A DNA stretch of 64,000 nucleotides from Microgenomates group bacterium GW2011_GWC1_46_15 (GTDB lineage Bacteria; Patescibacteriota; Microgenomatia; UBA1400; UBA12028). Positions 36,629 through 57,377 of the stretch are shown here, piece by piece; position 1 is the stretch's first letter; the number at the start of each line of letters is the position of its first letter. The stretch is from positions 64,030-128,029 of the forward strand of contig LCLX01000001.1 of the NCBI GenBank assembly GCA_001002285.1, read 5' to 3'. The position numbers and the translations under genes are program-made. The notes beneath the pieces were generated by a model. That model had not been told where the DNA came from, made no database searches, and saw only the letters and a program-made list of their open reading frames with translations.

Positions 36629-36895
36629 TTAAGGCTTATACACTTCTTTGCGATGAGCAATGCGCATGATAGAAATATGTTGATTTGATTTTTGCTTATG
36701 TACCACGTAAATAATGCGGTAATCACCCGAACGTAAACGGTAAGTATCGCGTTCTCCATGAAGCTTTTTACATCCGTGTGGAAACGGTTCATTCGAGAGA
36801 AGATCGATTTTTTTAACAATTTGAAACTTGTTGCCTGAGGGAAGTTTGAGTAATGCACGCTTTGCCGAGGGAATAATGGTGACTATGGCGGGCAT
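36629..36895 (-). CDS. RelE/ParE family toxin
   Basis: P.PHGCKKLHG, YRLRSGDYRIIY, IAHRKEVY. Confidence 0.9.
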   Translation of the reverse strand: MPAIVTIIPSAKRALLKLPSGNKFQIVKKIDLLSNEPFPHGCKKLHGERDTYRLRSGDYRIIYVVHKQKSNQHISIMRIAHRKEVYKP

Positions 36896-37164
36896 TAAAG
36901 ATAATCCTCCGCCTTAAATGGAACTGCCTTTTTTAATTCTCCCGCAGCTATTGCCCGACGTACCTCCGCAGCATCTCCCTTGTCGTAAAATCCGTTGGCA
37001 TATTTCTCGAGGTATTCAAGATATTCCGGGTCAACCAGAGCAGCTTTTGGCTTACTATTTTGCACAATAATAATAGGCTCAATTGCCGATGTAAGCCGAT
37101 CAAGCCAGGCGTTAAGGTTCTGGCGAAAATCGGTAACAGATACAATATTTTGTACAGTAAACAT
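36895..37164 (-). CDS. Phd/YefM family antitoxin
   Basis: VSVTDFRQN...EPIIIVQNSKPKAALV. Confidence 0.88.
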   Translation of the reverse strand: MFTVQNIVSVTDFRQNLNAWLDRLTSAIEPIIIVQNSKPKAALVDPEYLEYLEKYANGFYDKGDAAEVRRAIAAGELKKAVPFKAEDYL

Positions 37165-38426: not shown

Positions 38427-38456
38427 TTGACAAGAAGTGTGTGTGTGTGTGATGCT
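38427..38456 (+). promoter_or_regulatory. Putative promoter containing a (GT)7 tract
   Basis: TTGACA 38427-38432, (GT)7G 38437-38451, weak TG-n-GATGCT -10. Confidence 0.5.
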
Positions 38457-38483: not shown

Positions 38484-39350
38484 ATGGCTTTTACCCCAGA
38501 TCAAGTACGGCAGAGCATTGAGTCTTCAGCCGCAAACCCAGACCAATTAAGTACGGATCTTGCAAAAGAGCTTACACAAGATCGTTCTGAGCAAGTAGCA
38601 GCAAATTTAAAACTCGATGAAGTTTACGCCCAACTAGAAGGATTAAATCCTTCTGCGCGCATCGCCGAGTTAGCGCGTTTGGCAATTGGAGGAATTGGCG
38701 AGTTTGCGAAGGGGTATAGTAAACACCTTGAGAAGTCGGGTGAAGGAAGAAAGAAAAAGAAAGAACAGTATCAAGCGACTGTAGAGAAAACGCGTGGTCG
38801 CTGGGAAAAAATGGAAGAAAAAATGCGATTGAGAGAGGTCGCAGATAGAGCGGTAAGCAGGATTATGCAGGATGATGAGTACTTCGTTGGAAGGGATCGG
38901 GGGAGATTTGGACGCATAAAAGGTTGGGCAGAGCGTGGAAGAAAATGGATAGAAGAAAAAACAATAGGATTCCCCGAGTGGAGATCAAGAGTTAATGCGA
39001 AAAAAGAACAACAACATCTTGAGGGTGCAGCCAAGTATGCTCGACTTGCAGAAAAGCTGGGAGTAGTGAGTGAAGAAATAAGAAAACTGTTCAAAGAGAT
39101 GGATGCTGATGCAAGTCGGACAGCCTCGGGCAATCTTAATGAAGCAATGACGGAAGAACAGCGAACTGGTGCTAATGTTACCCAAACAGAACAGATGTTT
39201 GGGAAATCAATGAGTCCTGCCGCAGAAGCAATAGGTGAAGCGACTCGTGCCGCAATAAAGCAAATGAATCCCACAGATACATTGGCTCAAGGACAGCGCG
39301 CAGAACAAGGAATTTCGGAACAAGCACAACAAGTACAAAATGAGTATTAA
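38484..39350 (+). CDS. Hypothetical helical protein (288 aa)
   Basis: AAGGAG SD; charged, helical composition; no recognised domain. Confidence 0.8.
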   Translation: MAFTPDQVRQSIESSAANPDQLSTDLAKELTQDRSEQVAANLKLDEVYAQLEGLNPSARIAELARLAIGGIGEFAKGYSKHLEKSGEGRKKKKEQYQATVEKTRGRWEKMEEKMRLREVADRAVSRIMQDDEYFVGRDRGRFGRIKGWAERGRKWIEEKTIGFPEWRSRVNAKKEQQHLEGAAKYARLAEKLGVVSEEIRKLFKEMDADASRTASGNLNEAMTEEQRTGANVTQTEQMFGKSMSPAAEAIGEATRAAIKQMNPTDTLAQGQRAEQGISEQAQQVQNEY

Positions 39351-39364
39351 ATAACGGAGAATAT

Positions 39365-39589
39365 ATGGATAAAATTGTGCAAATTATAGAGGAACTCACA
39401 CAGACGATACTTTCAGATACAATGTTGGATGAGTCAACAAAAAGCACCCTTTTAGATCTTGCTGGAGAGGTTTCTCAAGATCCGACACCAGAAAATGTTA
39501 AGGCGCTTGTTCTTACATTGAAAACGCTTTCTAAAACAGAGAGATATCTCACCGCACTTGAAACATTGACCAATCTTTCAGCGGATTAG
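39365..39589 (+). CDS. Small helical hypothetical protein (74 aa)
   Basis: GGAG SD; resembles the C-terminus of the next ORF. Confidence 0.75.
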   Translation: MDKIVQIIEELTQTILSDTMLDESTKSTLLDLAGEVSQDPTPENVKALVLTLKTLSKTERYLTALETLTNLSAD

Positions 39590-39668
39590 CCTTTTTCTTT
39601 CTCATATTGACTCTCTTTATGTGTAATGAAATACTACTGGTATTCTTCTTGTATGGTGAGGGAGATTT

Positions 39669-42110
39669 ATGGCTGAAGAGATGCACAGTAGTGACTACGA
39701 AAAAGCGAAAGCTGATGCTACGAGTAAAGTTGCAGAAATAACGGCACAAAAAAACCAACTCGGAATGAGTGTTGAGGACGCACAACGCCAACAACAAAAC
39801 TTGCGTGATATTTCAACGAAATTAAGCGAGCAGGAGCAAAAAGCTGGAGAAGTTCATAACGAACTCACTACACTTGACGTCAAAAGAAAGCTGTATCAGG
39901 AATTATTTACAAAACGCCAGAGAACAATAACTGAGGAAGAACAAAGATTACGACAAATAGAAGAGAGACTATCCGTTAAAGAGAAAAACTTTTTTGTGAG
40001 AGTTATAAATAATCCGCAAACCCCATCACTTCTGAGAGATTTAGCAAGAGGAATGTCTCAAAACACAATAGACTATGAATCCGAGAAGGAACGACGCGCT
40101 CAAACAATGAATGTTCTCAGGGCTTTTGAGGCAATGGCAGTAGAAGACGAAAAAAACCTAGAAGAATTATCAATAAAAAGAACGAAGATTGAAGAACAAC
40201 TTGAACAAGTCCAGGGCGTTGCTGCAGAACTTGCTCGGCAAAAAGGAGAAGTAGAATCTTCCCCAGATGCCCAACGCGCAACCCTTGTTCTTGAAATGCA
40301 GCAAACGCTCGAAAAAGCAGAACAGGAACTTGAGCGTATTTCTGGAGAGGAACAAAAATATTGGAAGAGCTACAAAGAGAACATGTTTAATGATCTTGGT
40401 ATTACAGAAGAGGATGTAAAGAAGTGGGAAGAAGATGCTATTAATGTTCGCAAGAAGATAGAGGCGAGGAGTCCAGAGGAGAAAACGGAAGCAGAGGATA
40501 AAATTGTCGAAGGTATGGATATTGGGAGAACGAGAAGACTTTGGATTACAAATAACCCATACGAAACTGCAGTTGACGTTCGGTATAACGAAAAAGGCGA
40601 AGAAAGACCCCTTATTGAATCAGCTGACAACCTTTCCCGGCGCGCACTTTCTGCTGTTGAGTATTTCAAACATATGAGAGAATTGGCAAAAGAACATCAA
40701 GCTAACCTTCCTGGAATTATTGAACAAAGGCAGGAGTATTATGATGGCCAGGTTCGTGAGCTCTCTGAAGCAAAAAGAAAAGAGCTGTATGCCAAATTCG
40801 GGGTTCCTACAGATGAAGAATATAAAGCGCGCGTAAATGAAATACGGGAAAATGGAGTGTTGCTGGAAAATATTGATCAACTGCAGTGGGAAGCAGACAC
40901 GTTTGGGACAAAAGCGAAAAAAGATAAATTACAAAAAGCGCTAGGAAGAATTGAAAAGGAAGTTGACGCATATAACAAACAAATACAAGCATTAAAAGAT
41001 CAAGCACAAAAAGAACTTGAACAGTGGGTTGAAGAAGAACTGAAGCCATTATTAAAATATTTAGCCGCTGATATGGCAAACTCCATAGAACATACTTGGG
41101 AAACATTCGAACATCTTCCAATGAATGCGAAACAAATGATAGCGAGTGGAGAATATGATACCGCTCTTACTCAGGCTGAGGCTGTTACACAGAATGTAGA
41201 CAAACTCCGCGCGTTATTTACAGAAAAAGATGAGATTCTTGGAAAACTTAGTGAAGTTATTCTTGAACAAGAAAAAGAGATGGAGCAAGTTTCACAAAAA
41301 ATGAAATCTCTTCGAGATAGAATGGAAGAACTTCAAATGCAAGTTAATGGTATGGAAGATATGCTTGCGACCATTCCATCAAGATCAACGAAGCAAAGAA
41401 GATCAATAGAGTTAGTAAGGCGGGGATTTAAGGAACAGATTGAAATTGGAAGGCGCGATTTAGCAAAATTTGAAAAGTTACGAGTCAGAGCACTGGAGCA
41501 ACAAAAACAAATTTTGGATGCAGAAAAAGCAAAGTACTATCCCGTAGAACTTCTTGGTGGGAACCTTTTTGGTGATGAAGAGGGGGGAGAAGTTGCAGAA
41601 ACATATAAAGCCTCTATGTATGGAAAGTCTGGAGTAGAAATTGCAAGAAAAGTAGGGAACGAACAAATAAGATTGAAAGTAGATGGTCAGTTAACCGATT
41701 GGGAACAATTGCGCCAGGGAATTGAGAATGATATACAAGAATTTGTTCAAAAAAAGAAGGAAGAAGAACAGAAAGCGCGTGAACGAGCAGAGGGAACTGA
41801 AGCGCAAAAAAGGGCAATAGAGCTTGTTGAACAAATGAGGAGTTCAAATGAAGAACTTTTGAATCTTATGTTAACAACAGAATTTAACAACGAACATCCT
41901 GCAAATAATCAAGAAATCGTACAACAAGTTGCAAAAGACATGGATACTGTTATGGATTGGGTTGACGCCGTTGGTGATGATGAGGTAAAACGGAAAAAGC
42001 TAGCGGATGTTCTTGGGGCAATGGCGAAAGTTCTTGATGAGGGTGGTGAGTATAGAAGAATGAAAAAAACACTTGAAAACTTATCAGCCGGACTCCGATC
42101 CAGCACATGA
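39669..42110 (+). CDS. Long coiled-coil hypothetical protein (813 aa)
   Basis: GGGAG SD; E/K/Q/R-rich heptads; no Walker motifs. Confidence 0.88.
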   Translation: MAEEMHSSDYEKAKADATSKVAEITAQKNQLGMSVEDAQRQQQNLRDISTKLSEQEQKAGEVHNELTTLDVKRKLYQELFTKRQRTITEEEQRLRQIEERLSVKEKNFFVRVINNPQTPSLLRDLARGMSQNTIDYESEKERRAQTMNVLRAFEAMAVEDEKNLEELSIKRTKIEEQLEQVQGVAAELARQKGEVESSPDAQRATLVLEMQQTLEKAEQELERISGEEQKYWKSYKENMFNDLGITEEDVKKWEEDAINVRKKIEARSPEEKTEAEDKIVEGMDIGRTRRLWITNNPYETAVDVRYNEKGEERPLIESADNLSRRALSAVEYFKHMRELAKEHQANLPGIIEQRQEYYDGQVRELSEAKRKELYAKFGVPTDEEYKARVNEIRENGVLLENIDQLQWEADTFGTKAKKDKLQKALGRIEKEVDAYNKQIQALKDQAQKELEQWVEEELKPLLKYLAADMANSIEHTWETFEHLPMNAKQMIASGEYDTALTQAEAVTQNVDKLRALFTEKDEILGKLSEVILEQEKEMEQVSQKMKSLRDRMEELQMQVNGMEDMLATIPSRSTKQRRSIELVRRGFKEQIEIGRRDLAKFEKLRVRALEQQKQILDAEKAKYYPVELLGGNLFGDEEGGEVAETYKASMYGKSGVEIARKVGNEQIRLKVDGQLTDWEQLRQGIENDIQEFVQKKKEEEQKARERAEGTEAQKRAIELVEQMRSSNEELLNLMLTTEFNNEHPANNQEIVQQVAKDMDTVMDWVDAVGDDEVKRKKLADVLGAMAKVLDEGGEYRRMKKTLENLSAGLRSST

Positions 42111-42119
42111 TGGAAATCC

Positions 42120-44003
42120 ATGACAGAGGCTCCCCCAACTCCTCCGTTAGAAGCGGAAACAGATATACAGACAGAACGACAATCTCCGAAGCTCGTTATT
42201 TCTTCAGAAAGAGTAAAACAATTTAGAGGAAAATACCCTCATATTGTTACCATGCGGGAAGCGATGCTTTCTGATCTAGAGCAAGATGAATCACAATTTG
42301 ATGCAAGTGTTGTTGGCAAAGACGTTGCTCGAGCAAATTTTAAACGATATGTTGATGAGATTCGCTCCTCTCCCCTTACAACAATTCCATCTTTTGAAGA
42401 GATGCAAGAGTTTTTTTCACAGCCCACCAAATCCCAGGAAATTCCTGATGAGGAGGTTGTGGACGATACCGATCTTGATGAAAGAATTGTTCAATTTTGG
42501 AAAGAATATGATGATGTCAAAAATGCATTCACGAATGTATCCGTGACTATAGATCCCTCCGTTGCAGAGTATGTAAATTCTCAATTCGCTCAAATAGATC
42601 AGTTATCAGAGCTGAGTCTTTTTACAAGAGAGAATGTAGCTCGTGCGGAAGAAAAATTAGCAACAATACGTCGAAAATTAGATGAGCATTCTGGTGAAAC
42701 ACAACGGAAAGCTGAAGAATTAAAACAAGATCTTCAAAACAGGGTTCAGGCCGTTAGGACTCAACTCGAGGCATGGAAGGATAAGTTCGATCCAGATGAC
42801 TATCAATCTATTTTGGAAGAGTGTGTGTATTTGGAAAGTGAAATGAATTCCGCCGTACTTGCTCGACTTAACTATATTAATCTTAGATTGGCTCACCTCG
42901 AAACTAAAGTTTCACAAAGTATTAATGCAATGATTGAAGATATCGAAAGAGCCCAAAGAACGTTTCCTGAGGTACTACGAGATTTTCTTAAAGAAACGAA
43001 AAACGCAAAAGGGAAAAATATTGTTGAGGGAGTAATGAATAAGATTTTTGGTAAAAATGAAAAGGAACATCAAGAAAAACTCGCACATTATTTATCGTTT
43101 TTGTTAGGTCTATGCACTTCTTATGGATTGCTTCACGCAGGACACGTTGATGCAGGCCTGAGTTTTAATTTTGCAGTATTCTCAGAAGTTTTTTCCGGAC
43201 TTGCACAACTTACAATAAGTCGAGGAATGCAAGAGCGTGTTGAAATGCTCGAGTATCATCCTCGTGCGAAAAAGATTTTTGGTTCTCTTGCAGAGAAACA
43301 TACGATTTCTTCTCTCATGGGAAGAAGTAGAGAAATTAGTAAGTATGTGTGGTCGGGTATCCACGGTATTGCGGCTGGGGCGGTTTTGCACACGGGATCA
43401 ACTTTTATTGAAAACGCTATGAATACAAGCGCGCATCAACACAAAGAAGTCGCATCACTTACAGGGAAAGCCCATCAAGAACAACCGGTACAGCCGCAAG
43501 GTGATGGAGGTACCTCGACTGGAACGGGTGGAGAAACGGGGGAAGCAGGGGGAATTCCACCAGCCGAAACTCCAACGGTGGGACCACTAAGCGAACCAGT
43601 AAATATCAATACTATGGTGAGTCAAACAGAAGTTGATTTTATTGGGAAATTAGGACATACAGATTTTCCCCGTGCGAGCATGAATCTTCTGGATCACATT
43701 GACCACGCAATTGCCGAAATCAATGGCATTGATCTTACACGTCTCGCCCAAAACACAACGATAGAACTTTTTAATAGAACATATGCTAAAGAAGCCATAC
43801 AAGCCTTACAGAGTGCGCTCCACGAACTTCCAAAAAATGTGCAACTCTATCAAATTCCAATGGACTGGCCAGCTGGTAAACGGTATCTTGTAGAAACGGC
43901 ACTTTCTGGCTATGTCCGAACAGACCCCATGTATCAAGGATTACAACCCATAAACATGGAACATATAAAGGCGATTATTGAGTATTTGAATACATTACAT
44001 TAA
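42120..44003 (+). CDS. Hypothetical coiled-coil protein with internal hydrophobic segments (627 aa)
   Basis: Acidic N-terminus, coiled coil, Gly-rich hydrophobic helices, G/T/P linker, C-terminal domain. Confidence 0.85.
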   Translation: MTEAPPTPPLEAETDIQTERQSPKLVISSERVKQFRGKYPHIVTMREAMLSDLEQDESQFDASVVGKDVARANFKRYVDEIRSSPLTTIPSFEEMQEFFSQPTKSQEIPDEEVVDDTDLDERIVQFWKEYDDVKNAFTNVSVTIDPSVAEYVNSQFAQIDQLSELSLFTRENVARAEEKLATIRRKLDEHSGETQRKAEELKQDLQNRVQAVRTQLEAWKDKFDPDDYQSILEECVYLESEMNSAVLARLNYINLRLAHLETKVSQSINAMIEDIERAQRTFPEVLRDFLKETKNAKGKNIVEGVMNKIFGKNEKEHQEKLAHYLSFLLGLCTSYGLLHAGHVDAGLSFNFAVFSEVFSGLAQLTISRGMQERVEMLEYHPRAKKIFGSLAEKHTISSLMGRSREISKYVWSGIHGIAAGAVLHTGSTFIENAMNTSAHQHKEVASLTGKAHQEQPVQPQGDGGTSTGTGGETGEAGGIPPAETPTVGPLSEPVNINTMVSQTEVDFIGKLGHTDFPRASMNLLDHIDHAIAEINGIDLTRLAQNTTIELFNRTYAKEAIQALQSALHELPKNVQLYQIPMDWPAGKRYLVETALSGYVRTDPMYQGLQPINMEHIKAIIEYLNTLH

Positions 44004-44011
44004 GGAAAAAT

Positions 44012-44323
44012 ATGGCAGATACATCAGGTATTGTCCGTTGGATTGAACTGTTAAAGCAACAGGGAAAAACTGAAGAAGAAATTCAGAACGCTCTTATGGA
44101 TTTGAAGAACATGAGTTCACTAAATGTGTATACAACACTTGCAATAACTTTCACAGAAGATGAGTTAAAACAGATTGAAAGTATTACAGATGACCAAGGG
44201 GCAGAGAAAAAAGTTGAAGAAATGTTTCTTGCAAAGACAGGAATGAGTATTGCTGATCTTGTAAAGAGTGTTCAAGATGGGGTGGCAGGGCACGCCGTTC
44301 AGCAATTGCAAAAGAAAAGTTAG
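44012..44323 (+). CDS. Small acidic helical protein, DUF5663-like (tentative)
   Basis: AAGGA SD; pattern ..VY..L...F(T/S)EDE.K.IE.. recalls a CPR small-protein family. Confidence 0.6.
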   Translation: MADTSGIVRWIELLKQQGKTEEEIQNALMDLKNMSSLNVYTTLAITFTEDELKQIESITDDQGAEKKVEEMFLAKTGMSIADLVKSVQDGVAGHAVQQLQKKS

Positions 44324-44770: not shown

Positions 44771-45112
44771 ATGCAAAGAGTTTCTGCCTTGAGTGTACAG
44801 CATACTGTTTCCACACCTCTTCCTCGTGCTTTTTATACATATTTTTGGGATATCTCACCGAAAAACATTGATGTCCAGAAACATACAAAATATATTATTG
44901 AGCGCATCATGACGTGGGGAGATGAAACTGCGTGTAGGTGGATGCACAAAACTTTTAGTTTAGAAAGTATTCGTGAAACACTGAAAACTTCAAGGAACTT
45001 GGACAAAAAAACCGCGGTCTTTTTCTCGTACATCTATGATGTTTCCCAAAAGGAGGTGCGATGTTTACAGAAACAGTCTCCCCCGAGACCAAGCGCATTT
45101 TGGCCCTATTAG
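44771..45112 (+). CDS. DUF6922-like putative antitoxin
   Basis: YFWD...KYIIERIM.WG; overlaps the downstream nucleotidyltransferase. Confidence 0.7.
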   Translation: MQRVSALSVQHTVSTPLPRAFYTYFWDISPKNIDVQKHTKYIIERIMTWGDETACRWMHKTFSLESIRETLKTSRNLDKKTAVFFSYIYDVSQKEVRCLQKQSPPRPSAFWPY

Positions 45113-45690
45113 CAAAAGAGCCATTTGTCCGTAAATACTATCTTGCTGGTGGGACTGTGCTCGCATTGCACTATGGTCATCGTATCTCATACGATCTTGA
45201 TTTTTTTAGCCAAACTCCCGAGGAAAAACATATCATTGTAGACCGATTAACTGCATTGGGAAAAGTATTCATTAAACAGAATGATCAAGGAACATTTAAT
45301 GGGATTCTCGATGATGTAAAGATTAGTTTTTTCATCTATCCCTATCATCTTTTAAAACCGACAACACGAGTATTGGATGTTGAAACCGCAAGTTCATTGG
45401 ACTGTGCATGTATGAAACTTGACGCAATCGGATCGCGCGGATTAAAAAGAGATTTTTATGACCTCTACATGATTTTACATGAATATACACTCGACGAACT
45501 TTTGCATGCGTTCAAAGAGAAATATAAGACGGCAAGTACGGACCCATTCCATGTTCTTCGGAGTCTTACATATTTTATTGATGCAGAGGAAGATGAAGCA
45601 ATCAATCTCCTTAAACCACTCGAATGGGATACAGTAAAAACTTTCTTTATCAAACAAGTGAGTAGCTTTACACGGGAACGTCTGGTATAA
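45061..45690 (+). CDS. AbiEii-family nucleotidyltransferase toxin
   Basis: YLAGGTVLAL.YGHRISYDLDFF, MKL.AI..RG.KRDFYDLY. Confidence 0.9.
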   Translation: MFTETVSPETKRILALLAKEPFVRKYYLAGGTVLALHYGHRISYDLDFFSQTPEEKHIIVDRLTALGKVFIKQNDQGTFNGILDDVKISFFIYPYHLLKPTTRVLDVETASSLDCACMKLDAIGSRGLKRDFYDLYMILHEYTLDELLHAFKEKYKTASTDPFHVLRSLTYFIDAEEDEAINLLKPLEWDTVKTFFIKQVSSFTRERLV

Positions 45691-55445: not shown

Positions 55446-57377
55446 ATGACTCCCAACGACCTTCGCACACAGTACATTGCATTTTTCTTTGTTCGCGGGC
55501 ACGCAGAACTCCCTTCAGCCCCGCTTGTTCCGGAAAACGATCCCACCACGCTGTTTACAGGTTTTGGTATGCAGCCGCTCGTTCCATATCTTTTGGGTCA
55601 GCCCCATCCTGAAGGGAAACGCTTAGTAAACTCGCAAAAAAGTTTCCGGTCGGGGGATATTGAGGAAGTTGGGGACAATCGGCACACCACATTTTTTGAG
55701 ATGCTTGGAAATTGGTCGCTCGGCGACTACTTTAAAAAAGAGCAACTCCAATGGTGTTTTGAGTTTTTAACGCAAACGCTTGAACTCGACCCAAAGAAAT
55801 TATTTGTAACGGTATTCCGTGGAAACGATGCAGTTCCACGCGATACCGAGTCGGTGAAGATTTGGAAAACGCTTTTTTCCGATGTTGGTATGCAGGCGCA
55901 GGATGTTGATTTTTCTGAGCGCGACGGGATGCAAAACGGCCGCATTTTTTACTACGATGAAAAGAAAAACTGGTGGTCGCGGTCGGGCGTTCCCTCTGCA
56001 ATGCCTACGGGTGAGCCTGGTGGACCGGATAGCGAAGTGTTCTATGATTTTGGTGCAGAACTGGGTTTGCATGAGTCCTCGCCATACAAAAATCAGCCAT
56101 GCCACGTAAACTGCGACTGCGGCCGGTTTTTGGAAATCGGCAACAGCGTGTTTATGCAGTATCAAAAACAAGCCGATGGTTCGTTTACTGAACTTCCACA
56201 AAAAAATGTTGATTTTGGCGGTGGCTTGGAAAGAATTTTAGCTGCAGTACATGATGAACCAGATATATTCAAAACAGAATTTTTTAGTGATTTAAGAAAT
56301 AAATTACTCGACGGAATAAATAAAGTAATAATAGATCAGACCAATCCAGAGTATACAAAATTGACTAATACAAGGGAATCTAGAGTAAGAATATTTTTAG
56401 ACCACTCAAGGGCTGTAATATTTCTTATGGGTGAGGGCATAAAACCAGGGAAAAACGAAAGAGAATATGTGGTGCGTAGATTAATTAGAAGAGCTGATGA
56501 TCAGTTATCTATCCTTAAATTAGACCACGAATTGTACTGGAAGGAGGCAATTTCTCATTATAAAAAAGTTTACAAAAATGTTTATAGTGCCTCATGGGAT
56601 CAAGAAAATATTCTAGGCATCATAATCAATGAATTAAGAATATATGGTACTGTTTTTAAAAATGTTGAGAAAATAAAAATAGAATTAATAAAATTAAAAG
56701 AAAAATTTTCACCAATTTCCCTTGCTTCAACATACGCTGGTCCAGTTTTATTTCATTATCAAAGTACGTATGGAATACCTAGTACAGCAACTCTCCCATT
56801 AATAGAAGAAGTTGGTTTATTACCAAAATATGCTTTTACAAGTTTTAATAAAGAAAAAGCGTACCATCAGGAAAAATCACGCACGGCATCCAAGGGTATG
56901 TTTAAAGGGGGACTTGCGGATCACTCAGAAAACGTAACGAAGTACCACACTGCAACGCACCTTCTGCACGCCGCGCTGCGCAAAGTACTCGGTGAACACG
57001 TTTCTCAGCAGGGCTCAAACATTACGGGTGAACGACTGCGGTTTGATTTTTCGCATCCCACAGCGCTCACAGAAGAACAAAAAAAGAAAGTTGAAGATAT
57101 GATCAATGAAAAAATCAAAGAAGATCTTCCCGTAACGCAAGAAATGGTGTCCAAAGACGAGGCGCTCAAGCAGGGGGCGATGGCATTTTTCAAAGAAAAA
57201 TACGCCGATACCGTTTCCATGTATACGATCGGCAAAGATCTTAAAAAAGGCTGGTTTTCTAAAGAGTTGTGCGGCGGCCCGCACGTTGCGCATACCGGTG
57301 AAATTGGCCCAATAAAAATCACAAAAGAGGAATCAGTTGGCTCAGGGATTCGGAGAATCTATGTGCAGTTTGCCTAA
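55446..57377 (+). CDS. alaS: Alanine--tRNA ligase (no C-Ala domain)
   Basis: DPTTLFT, HTTFFEMLGNWS, DFGGGLER, editing HTATH and ELCGGPH. Confidence 0.96.
   Translation: MTPNDLRTQYIAFFFVRGHAELPSAPLVPENDPTTLFTGFGMQPLVPYLLGQPHPEGKRLVNSQKSFRSGDIEEVGDNRHTTFFEMLGNWSLGDYFKKEQLQWCFEFLTQTLELDPKKLFVTVFRGNDAVPRDTESVKIWKTLFSDVGMQAQDVDFSERDGMQNGRIFYYDEKKNWWSRSGVPSAMPTGEPGGPDSEVFYDFGAELGLHESSPYKNQPCHVNCDCGRFLEIGNSVFMQYQKQADGSFTELPQKNVDFGGGLERILAAVHDEPDIFKTEFFSDLRNKLLDGINKVIIDQTNPEYTKLTNTRESRVRIFLDHSRAVIFLMGEGIKPGKNEREYVVRRLIRRADDQLSILKLDHELYWKEAISHYKKVYKNVYSASWDQENILGIIINELRIYGTVFKNVEKIKIELIKLKEKFSPISLASTYAGPVLFHYQSTYGIPSTATLPLIEEVGLLPKYAFTSFNKEKAYHQEKSRTASKGMFKGGLADHSENVTKYHTATHLLHAALRKVLGEHVSQQGSNITGERLRFDFSHPTALTEEQKKKVEDMINEKIKEDLPVTQEMVSKDEALKQGAMAFFKEKYADTVSMYTIGKDLKKGWFSKELCGGPHVAHTGEIGPIKITKEESVGSGIRRIYVQFA

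Follow-up and report, generated by a model that had tools for sequence, protein, structure and literature searches.

Do five closely spaced genes of a patescibacterial genome encode one machine, or separate systems that have come to lie side by side? The question arises for a cluster at positions 38484 to 44323 of a 64,000-nucleotide stretch (hereafter the window) of contig LCLX01000001.1 from Microgenomates group bacterium GW2011_GWC1_46_15, the five open reading frames (ORFs) of which are called here A288, B74, C813, D627 and E103 (or A to E) after the lengths of their products in amino acids. The initial annotation of this DNA had taken them for a single dedicated module, resembling in layout parts of type III and type VII secretion systems (T3SS, T7SS), and had established no homology. 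We report that the cluster is best described as two cassettes, A-B and C-D-E, sharing one insertion slot, and that E103 is, by profile comparison, a distant homologue of the family DUF5663 (PF18908). How Patescibacteria use their hosts and what their essential type IV secretion system (T4SS) exports are open questions according to passages of PMC11665869.

Two cassettes in one cluster

All five ORFs lie on the forward strand, at 38484-39350 (A288), 39365-39589 (B74), 39669-42110 (C813), 42120-44003 (D627) and 44012-44323 (E103), with intergenic gaps of 14, 79, 9 and 8 nt, and in these coordinates our data agree with the initial annotation. The layout that it described, a large protein with a small acidic partner, was also borne out. 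E genes retain the gene of a large partner immediately upstream, B genes retain an A gene in the same position, and the two pairs are found apart from each other. For E, 32 places were found besides the window; the sample consists of the window and 31 of these, all but G447. At each of these 32 loci the E gene directly follows a co-oriented ORF, at a distance of -47 to 84 nt; 28 of the upstream partners have at least 400 amino acids, two are cut by contig ends, and the remaining two have 310 and 166. The background for such pairing is 10 of the 191 small ORFs of the genome (a set that includes shadow frames). Two further metagenome loci show the same pairing. The genomic slots of the E loci vary widely and include positions beside infB, secY-adk-map and hisS.

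For B74, a small acidic helical protein (isoelectric point, pI, 4.3), homologues were found in four of 150 genomes of the order, at 31-38% identity, together with an additional weak match inside a 1027-amino-acid protein. All four lie directly downstream of an A-like helical ORF of 255-299 amino acids, and A and B are thus paired in 5/5 genomes that have B, the window counted. The B profile, which recovers B in its own genome, matched none of 330 genomes of the class. A288 as a lone query matched none of 150 order genomes; a profile built from its four relatives, with the window sequence excluded, ranked A288 first among the 911 ORFs of its genome (E 1.5e-5), and an HHalign comparison with these relatives gave 71% (E 3.7e-5). 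Over 250 order genomes the A profile produced strong matches in G131, G132, G141 and G144, plus two weak ones. A weak match in G124 was rejected as it sits in an unrelated protein, and another in G032 because of internal stops. Likenesses seen by eye between A288 and an orphan of G009, and between B74 and C813, were not significant.

No genuine E match was present in the four A-B genomes (weak matches in G141 and G144 were rejected, the one in G144 lying in an unrelated protein and the one in G141 mirroring it), five E genomes had no B match, and the A and E match sets did not overlap in the 250-genome searches. Because the pairs occur apart, a promoter-like site (P2, described below) precedes C, and C813 has no detectable homologue, we regard the cluster as two cassettes rather than one module. 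The single five-gene module proposed initially is therefore not supported.

E103 and the family DUF5663

A search with a three-sequence profile (E<=0.001, representatives at 50% clustering) yielded an E family of 155 representatives, from which a few long repeat proteins were kept out of the alignment; the latter contained 133 single-domain members from 150 listed. The family is acidic (pI below 5.5 in 92%) and has no invariant residue. Its alignment matched that of 18 DUF5663 members with an HHalign probability of 95.3% (E 2.3e-8, 100 columns), while controls with the B family gave 1.4% and 1.8%. An Atlas lead for E (0.92) likewise pointed to DUF5663, which is annotated on 12% of the members. 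The Pfam model of DUF5663 had no match in the genome at E<=1, and of the 47 families obtained for the 133 members, the 25 listed do not include DUF5663. On this alignment evidence, E103 is a full-length distant homologue and its family a divergent sister family of DUF5663, which supersedes the earlier statement on homology. Proteins of both families are small, acidic and helical and usually adjoin a large unannotated protein; DUF5663 partners lie on either side, whereas those of the E family lie upstream.

The AlphaFold2 model of E103 consists of five helices and nothing else (pLDDT 92.5). Fold searches with it returned nothing at E<=0.001 or with a Z score of at least 8, which is not proof of a new fold; the best structural match had a Z score of 7.0 (root-mean-square deviation, rmsd, 3.5; 70 residues aligned), and CFP10-ESAT6 ranked 49th (Z 4.8, rmsd 8.3). 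The suggestion that all five proteins are helical thus holds as a model for E only, and it does not fit the low-complexity Gly/Pro/Thr linker of D (about residues 451-495). The closest E homologue in a named record belongs to Ca. Collierbacteria, of the same order. No relative of E was seen in viral contigs or phage records, and a word-index search found E itself only.

The large partners of E

The usual partner of E consists of an acidic N-terminus, a basic, Trp-containing amphipathic helix, Gly/Ala-rich and weakly hydrophobic helices, a Pro/Thr linker and an exchangeable end domain of roughly 120-200 residues. In D627 we recognise an acidic N-terminus, a coiled coil (residues ~113-284), Gly/Ala helices (~322-432), the Gly/Pro/Thr linker mentioned above and a C-terminal domain (~493-627). 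A post hoc rule for this architecture matches 20 of 30 partners and 8 of 357 ORFs of the genome. The Gly plus Ala fraction in the best window is 0.34 for the partners vs 0.16-0.21. A strong transmembrane segment is found in 0/32 partners, and an N-terminal hydrophobic signal in 0/29. The hydrophobic hairpins noted initially in one member are weak: the best 19-residue Kyte-Doolittle mean of D627 is 1.21, and windows of 1.1-1.9 occur in 161 of 357 ordinary ORFs.

The partners are modular. The hairpin of the L068 protein is common with that of L069 and its end domain with the L058 group, and two groups of end domains failed to align with each other (0.3%). The top two matches of the C-terminal domain of D among ~940 proteins are other E partners (E 0.018 and 0.31), and an iterative search from three seeds recruited this domain with no decoy. 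A LysM identity of the end domains, suggested by motif likeness seen by eye in some relatives, was not supported, as the Pfam LysM model matched 0/20 at E<=0.5 and a LysM mini-profile gave non-significant scores. Pfam found one domain above cut-off in the 27 partners outside the window, a PP2C phosphatase, which forms the N-terminus of a 1359-amino-acid E partner at L018:8556-12635. D627 itself gave a weak PADLOC match (E 3.8e-4) to LeoBC, a dynamin-like model, over residues 170-345, its Atlas model had a pTM of 0.27, and a word-index search returned one partial sequence only, identical over the matched region. Neither C813 nor D627 had a sequence match in the Protein Data Bank (PDB).

C813 is an acidic, soluble coiled-coil protein (maximal 19-residue Kyte-Doolittle mean 0.34). 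A heptad heuristic scored 58% of it, 26% of A and 22% of D, the 95th percentile of the genome being 23%. A homologue was found in 0/13 genomes of the family, and comparison with its positional equivalents at other E loci gave nothing above decoys. Unalignable, unannotated ORFs of 424-1827 amino acids occupy its position at several of these loci, and C813 is probably an accessory of D-E.

DUF5663 loci in other genomes

DUF5663 occurs in 37 of 201 genomes of the phylum. Examination of 25 of the 52 listed places showed that 18 adjoin an essentially unannotated protein of at least 600 amino acids. At L118 (G630:C3:36000-55500) three DUF5663 genes form an array with large partners near a PrgI-like T4SS gene. 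Two of them share an exact repeat of about 1.7 kb. Counted from the first base of DUF5663 it extends over 1601 nt, which take in this gene and residues 1-390 of the partner, and after that the C-termini diverge; one variant C-terminus gave weak metallophosphoesterase and Tox-MPTase3 matches, and a weak GT2 match was also seen among DUF5663 partners. As identical DUF5663 copies carry different C-termini, the small protein tracks the conserved part of the large one and not its variable tip, and is therefore read as a chaperone rather than as an immunity protein against the variable part.

Proteins of more than 1000 amino acids lie downstream of DUF5663 at L104, L105, L106, L109, L110 and L119, with a common N-terminal part of 400-700 residues and a variable C-terminus (some of them are cut by the edge of the region). 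At L108:8284-12933, DUF5663 and a 769-amino-acid partner directly follow virB4 in one apparent operon. DUF5663 also stands directly or nearly behind infB in several genomes (L102-L105; SEML1_0160-0163), which may hint at a housekeeping role for one subfamily.

Wang et al. 2023 (PMC10633639) list in their supplement for Southlakia epibionticum, downstream of infB, the hypothetical gene SEML1_0161 (2304 nt) and then two DUF5663 genes, SEML1_0162 and SEML1_0163. In the transposon insertion sequencing (Tn-seq) data given there, SEML1_0161 had 99 insertions in the input and 0 at T1 and T2, and SEML1_0161 and SEML1_0162 were both called GD/ES/ES, i.e. essential on the host, with SEML1_0163 called NE/GD/GD (PMC10633639). 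Another DUF5663 gene, SEML1_0221, the co-oriented neighbours of which are short, was called non-essential (PMC10633639). The available main text of that paper mentions neither SEML1_0161 nor SEML1_0162 or SEML1_0221. As a relative of the family of E is called essential for growth on the host, the C-D-E cassette is a good candidate for host-contact machinery.

Cassette A-B and its promoter-like site

A288 has a basic middle part and is amphipathic and helical, with no transmembrane segment (maximal 19-residue Kyte-Doolittle mean 0.78). Upstream of it lies P1 (38427-38456, forward strand), in which TTGACA is separated by an 18-nt spacer from the -10-like sequence GATGCT. The spacer contains a (GT)7.5 tract at 38437-38451, the longest dinucleotide tract of the 914-kb genome; among the four tracts of at least 11 nt it is the sole intergenic one, and none of at least 15 nt appeared in 10/10 shuffled genomes. 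All four A homologues are also preceded by TTGACA, followed 17-18 nt downstream by a CATACT or CATAGT box. TTGACA with a -10-like box is thus present upstream of all five A genes, the background for TTGACA at that distance being 13 of 740 genes; the strict promoter pattern, which was fitted after these loci had been inspected, is found at 6 of 740. Slippage by one GT unit would change the spacer from 18 nt to 16 or 20 nt, and slippage in spacer length is a mechanism of promoter phase variation in other bacteria. P1 is hence a candidate slippage-tunable promoter and a candidate contingency locus as judged from its sequence, which, if true, would provide such a candidate in Patescibacteria.

The second site, P2 (39607-39635, forward strand), lies in the B-C gap and reads TTGACT-17-AATACT. 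It is a consensus match only, and taken alone it is weak, because the promoter scan returned 8 matches against a shuffle mean of 11.6.

Composition and genomic slot

The five ORFs are genuine and foreign in appearance. Shine-Dalgarno sequences of the GGAG/AGGA type precede A, B, C and E, as had been claimed for most of the genes, and none is seen at D; the background is 110 of 388 ATG-start ORFs of the genome. The A-rich codon use described initially applies to AGA (0.37 of Arg codons vs 0.12 genome-wide) and ATA (0.33 of Ile codons vs 0.13), whereas GAA is scarcely raised (0.70 vs 0.64). The G+C content at third codon positions (GC3), scored for A, C, D and E with B left out, lies in the 2nd-6th percentile of scored genes. 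As stated before, the five proteins contain no Walker A motif, and HExxH is likewise absent from them. Pfam and NCBIfam scans of the five gave nothing above family cut-offs, PHROGs and PADLOC gave weak matches of the coiled-coil type only (the Rad50 model reached 18.6 bits against a cut-off of 700), and no paralogue was found in the same genome.

The cluster is bounded by a DHH-like gene and rpsO, downstream of nusA-infB. Two toxin-antitoxin pairs, ParE-Phd (36629-37164, reverse strand) upstream and DUF6922-AbiEii (44771-45690, forward strand) downstream, break the same housekeeping region on both sides of the cluster, and an ORF similar by eye to the AbiEii protein of the window adjoins A-B in G131. 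Examination of short flanks in the 13 family genomes showed rpsO in all of them. In ten, DHH is followed by rpsO directly or with one short unrelated insert between them; in the other three a 315-amino-acid opposite-strand ORF, a 473-amino-acid orphan and a contig end were found. The orphan (G009, L138:9940-11361) is unrelated to the cluster proteins and has a Gly/Ala zipper. Since the DHH-rpsO interval lacks the cluster and is differently filled in relatives, the cluster is an insert in a variable slot. Elsewhere in the window, a gene resembling AlaRS by eye (55446-57377) has a middle part of low G+C content (0.371 at 56001-57000).

Discussion

Most plausibly, though we hold this view tentatively and at somewhat less than even confidence, the small proteins chaperone large membrane-interacting proteins that are used at the host interface. 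Two substrate-plus-chaperone cassettes, each moving independently, would then lie side by side in the insertion slot. E, a non-catalytic DUF5663-like protein, would bind the conserved part of D, with its amphipathic and weakly hydrophobic Gly/Ala helices, and keep D soluble. D, which has no signal peptide, would be delivered independently of Sec, most plausibly via the patescibacterial T4SS; its helices would enter a membrane at the point of host contact or rest on its surface, and its Pro/Thr stalk would present the variable end domain. C could serve as a long coiled-coil spacer or co-substrate. In the other cassette, the acidic B may keep the basic amphipathic helices of A neutralised up to the point at which A encounters a membrane, and slippage in the (GT)n spacer of the promoter may adjust how strongly A-B is expressed. 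We infer binding, export, membrane insertion and host attachment or penetration throughout this scheme.

The genome has a VirB4-like gene at G000:C1:16389-18317, about 84 kb from the cluster, and the cluster itself contains no VirB homologue. The role of the patescibacterial T4SS is described as unknown in passages of PMC11665869, and the account in the available part of PMC12102498 names no substrate. Because a T4SS of undescribed role is present in the genome, the cassettes are candidate T4SS substrates. E loci show no enrichment near T4SS genes, however, so that this route is just the available candidate. A bolder version, which we consider doubtful, is that the whole phylum possesses an undescribed class of polymorphic, membrane-penetrating proteins with which hosts are breached or tapped, and that DUF5663/E proteins are the chaperones dedicated to them, these large proteins being the missing T4SS substrates or translocators, some with enzymatic cargo, and A-B a phase-variable accessory.

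Several observations weigh against this scheme. E loci lie near T4SS genes in 1 of 31 cases, and DUF5663 regions in 3 of 20, one of which was the source of the queries. E is rare at the class level (22 of 301 genomes; in the order, 12 of 251), a toxin or enzyme domain was detected in none of the five window proteins, and in hydrophobicity the helices of D do not exceed those buried inside soluble proteins. The architecture rule, as stated, was written post hoc, and the E loci L061, L066 and L067 lack the partner architecture. Leave-one-out hidden Markov models (HMMs) gave no link between the pooled partners and either the D hairpin (rank 170) or its end domain (rank 8); as these profiles failed, the case for D as a member of the partner family is built on gene order, architecture and a single set of weak matches. 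Seven of the 25 DUF5663 loci have no large neighbour, some of them lying directly downstream of infB. None of the other four A promoters has the GT tract, for which length variants were likewise not observed; the tract may have arisen by a recent mutation or stem from the assembly. Finally, SEML1_0161 is a putative counterpart of D, and the Tn-seq essentiality may be polar and cannot tell host contact from a cell-structural role.

In another account, possible but in our view rather unlikely, the epibiont uses the D-type proteins as structural parts of its own envelope, either as a scaffold on the inner face or as a stalk that is anchored in the membrane and turns its end domain outward, E and DUF5663 being cytoplasmic adaptors or assembly factors with no delivery to the host. 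The essential Southlakia pair, the loci beside the housekeeping operons infB, secY-adk-map and hisS, the E loci without T4SS linkage and the weak LeoBC match of D would all be consistent with it, and Pro/Thr linkers are typical of surface stalks. Yet the extreme divergence, the module swaps and the tandem copies with exchanged tips suit a conflict interface better than a scaffold; moreover, presence across genomes is patchy, and the partners lack a strong transmembrane anchor. One or both pairs might also be toxin-antitoxin or toxin-immunity pairs, in which the large protein is neutralised by its small acidic neighbour. This is improbable overall and would be most plausible for A-B, as A is basic and B very acidic, the pair has its own strong promoter and is inserted amid housekeeping genes, and known toxin-antitoxin genes flank the slot, with an AbiEii-like ORF beside A-B in G131. 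It is opposed by the lack of any toxin family match, by the identical DUF5663 copies that accompany different C-termini, and by the large Southlakia neighbour, which is itself called essential, unlike a toxin.

That all five proteins make up one dedicated machine appears very unlikely. Although the tight spacing, the common codon skew and the similar promoter type suggest a common origin of the insert, the A-B genomes without genuine E, the E genomes without B, the absence of B from the class genomes, the disjoint A and E match sets and the second promoter-like site before C all argue otherwise. The least probable account is that these are decaying or neutral orphans, the pairing reflecting mere shared descent of neighbours; low GC3 and the unrelated inserts that the slot takes in relatives would fit it, but the frames are long and intact, the promoter is conserved, and the pairing is kept over many slots and families despite divergence beyond alignment.

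The chaperone and host-contact idea is directly testable, because a genetically tractable species has the pair SEML1_0161/0162, which is called essential. Furthermore, the small, conserved E/DUF5663 gene is a marker that flags a large, otherwise unalignable partner, and with it candidate host-contact proteins could be catalogued phylum-wide. Nothing on DUF5663 or PF18908 was found in the main texts searched, though supplements (one DUF5663 table is known) may mention them and subscription papers lay largely outside the search; the topical literature yielded no description of these pairs.

Comparison with known systems

Membership of a T3SS or T7SS, raised initially, found no support: in this 100%-complete genome neither the SctV/FlhA export gate (FHIPEP, PF00771; control matched 6/14) nor WXG100 (PF06013; control matched 5/14) was found, and A, B, C and E contain no WxG motif. 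No Pfam or PDB sequence match to pore-forming toxins of the ClyA, XaxAB or Hbl type, and no Pfam match to PspA_IM30 or Snf7, was obtained with the window proteins. Dynamin-like LeoA/LeoBC and SMC/Rad50 proteins differ in having a P-loop NTPase, which is absent here together with Walker A, the matches being weak and of the coiled-coil type.

The closer likenesses are to substrate-chaperone pairs. T3SS translocators SctE/SctB (of the IpaB/YopB type) come with class II chaperones, and they resemble D-E in several respects: weakly hydrophobic helices come after a coiled coil, a signal peptide is lacking, and a small acidic protein, in their case the chaperone, is encoded next to them. They differ in that neither E nor its family has a Pfam match to tetratricopeptide repeats (TPR), no FHIPEP was found in the genome, and there is no sequence match. 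The Eag (DUF1795) chaperones of type VI secretion systems have an alpha/beta fold, unlike E, which models as all-helical, and no PAAR, Rhs or DUF1795 match was found in the cluster, the E family or the partners. Like E, however, they are small dedicated proteins beside a large one: according to parts of PMC7773334 and PMC12881460, they are encoded beside large effectors with transmembrane domains and are proposed to shield hydrophobic helices before export. Polymorphic toxin systems, as described in parts of PMC3482391, share with the relatives L118, L100 and L018 a conserved trafficking part with exchangeable domains, while no toxin domain is found in the window proteins and the small partner goes with the conserved part and not with the tip. 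The cluster thus comprises two undescribed cassettes, which may work like known substrate-chaperone pairs and belong to no described system.

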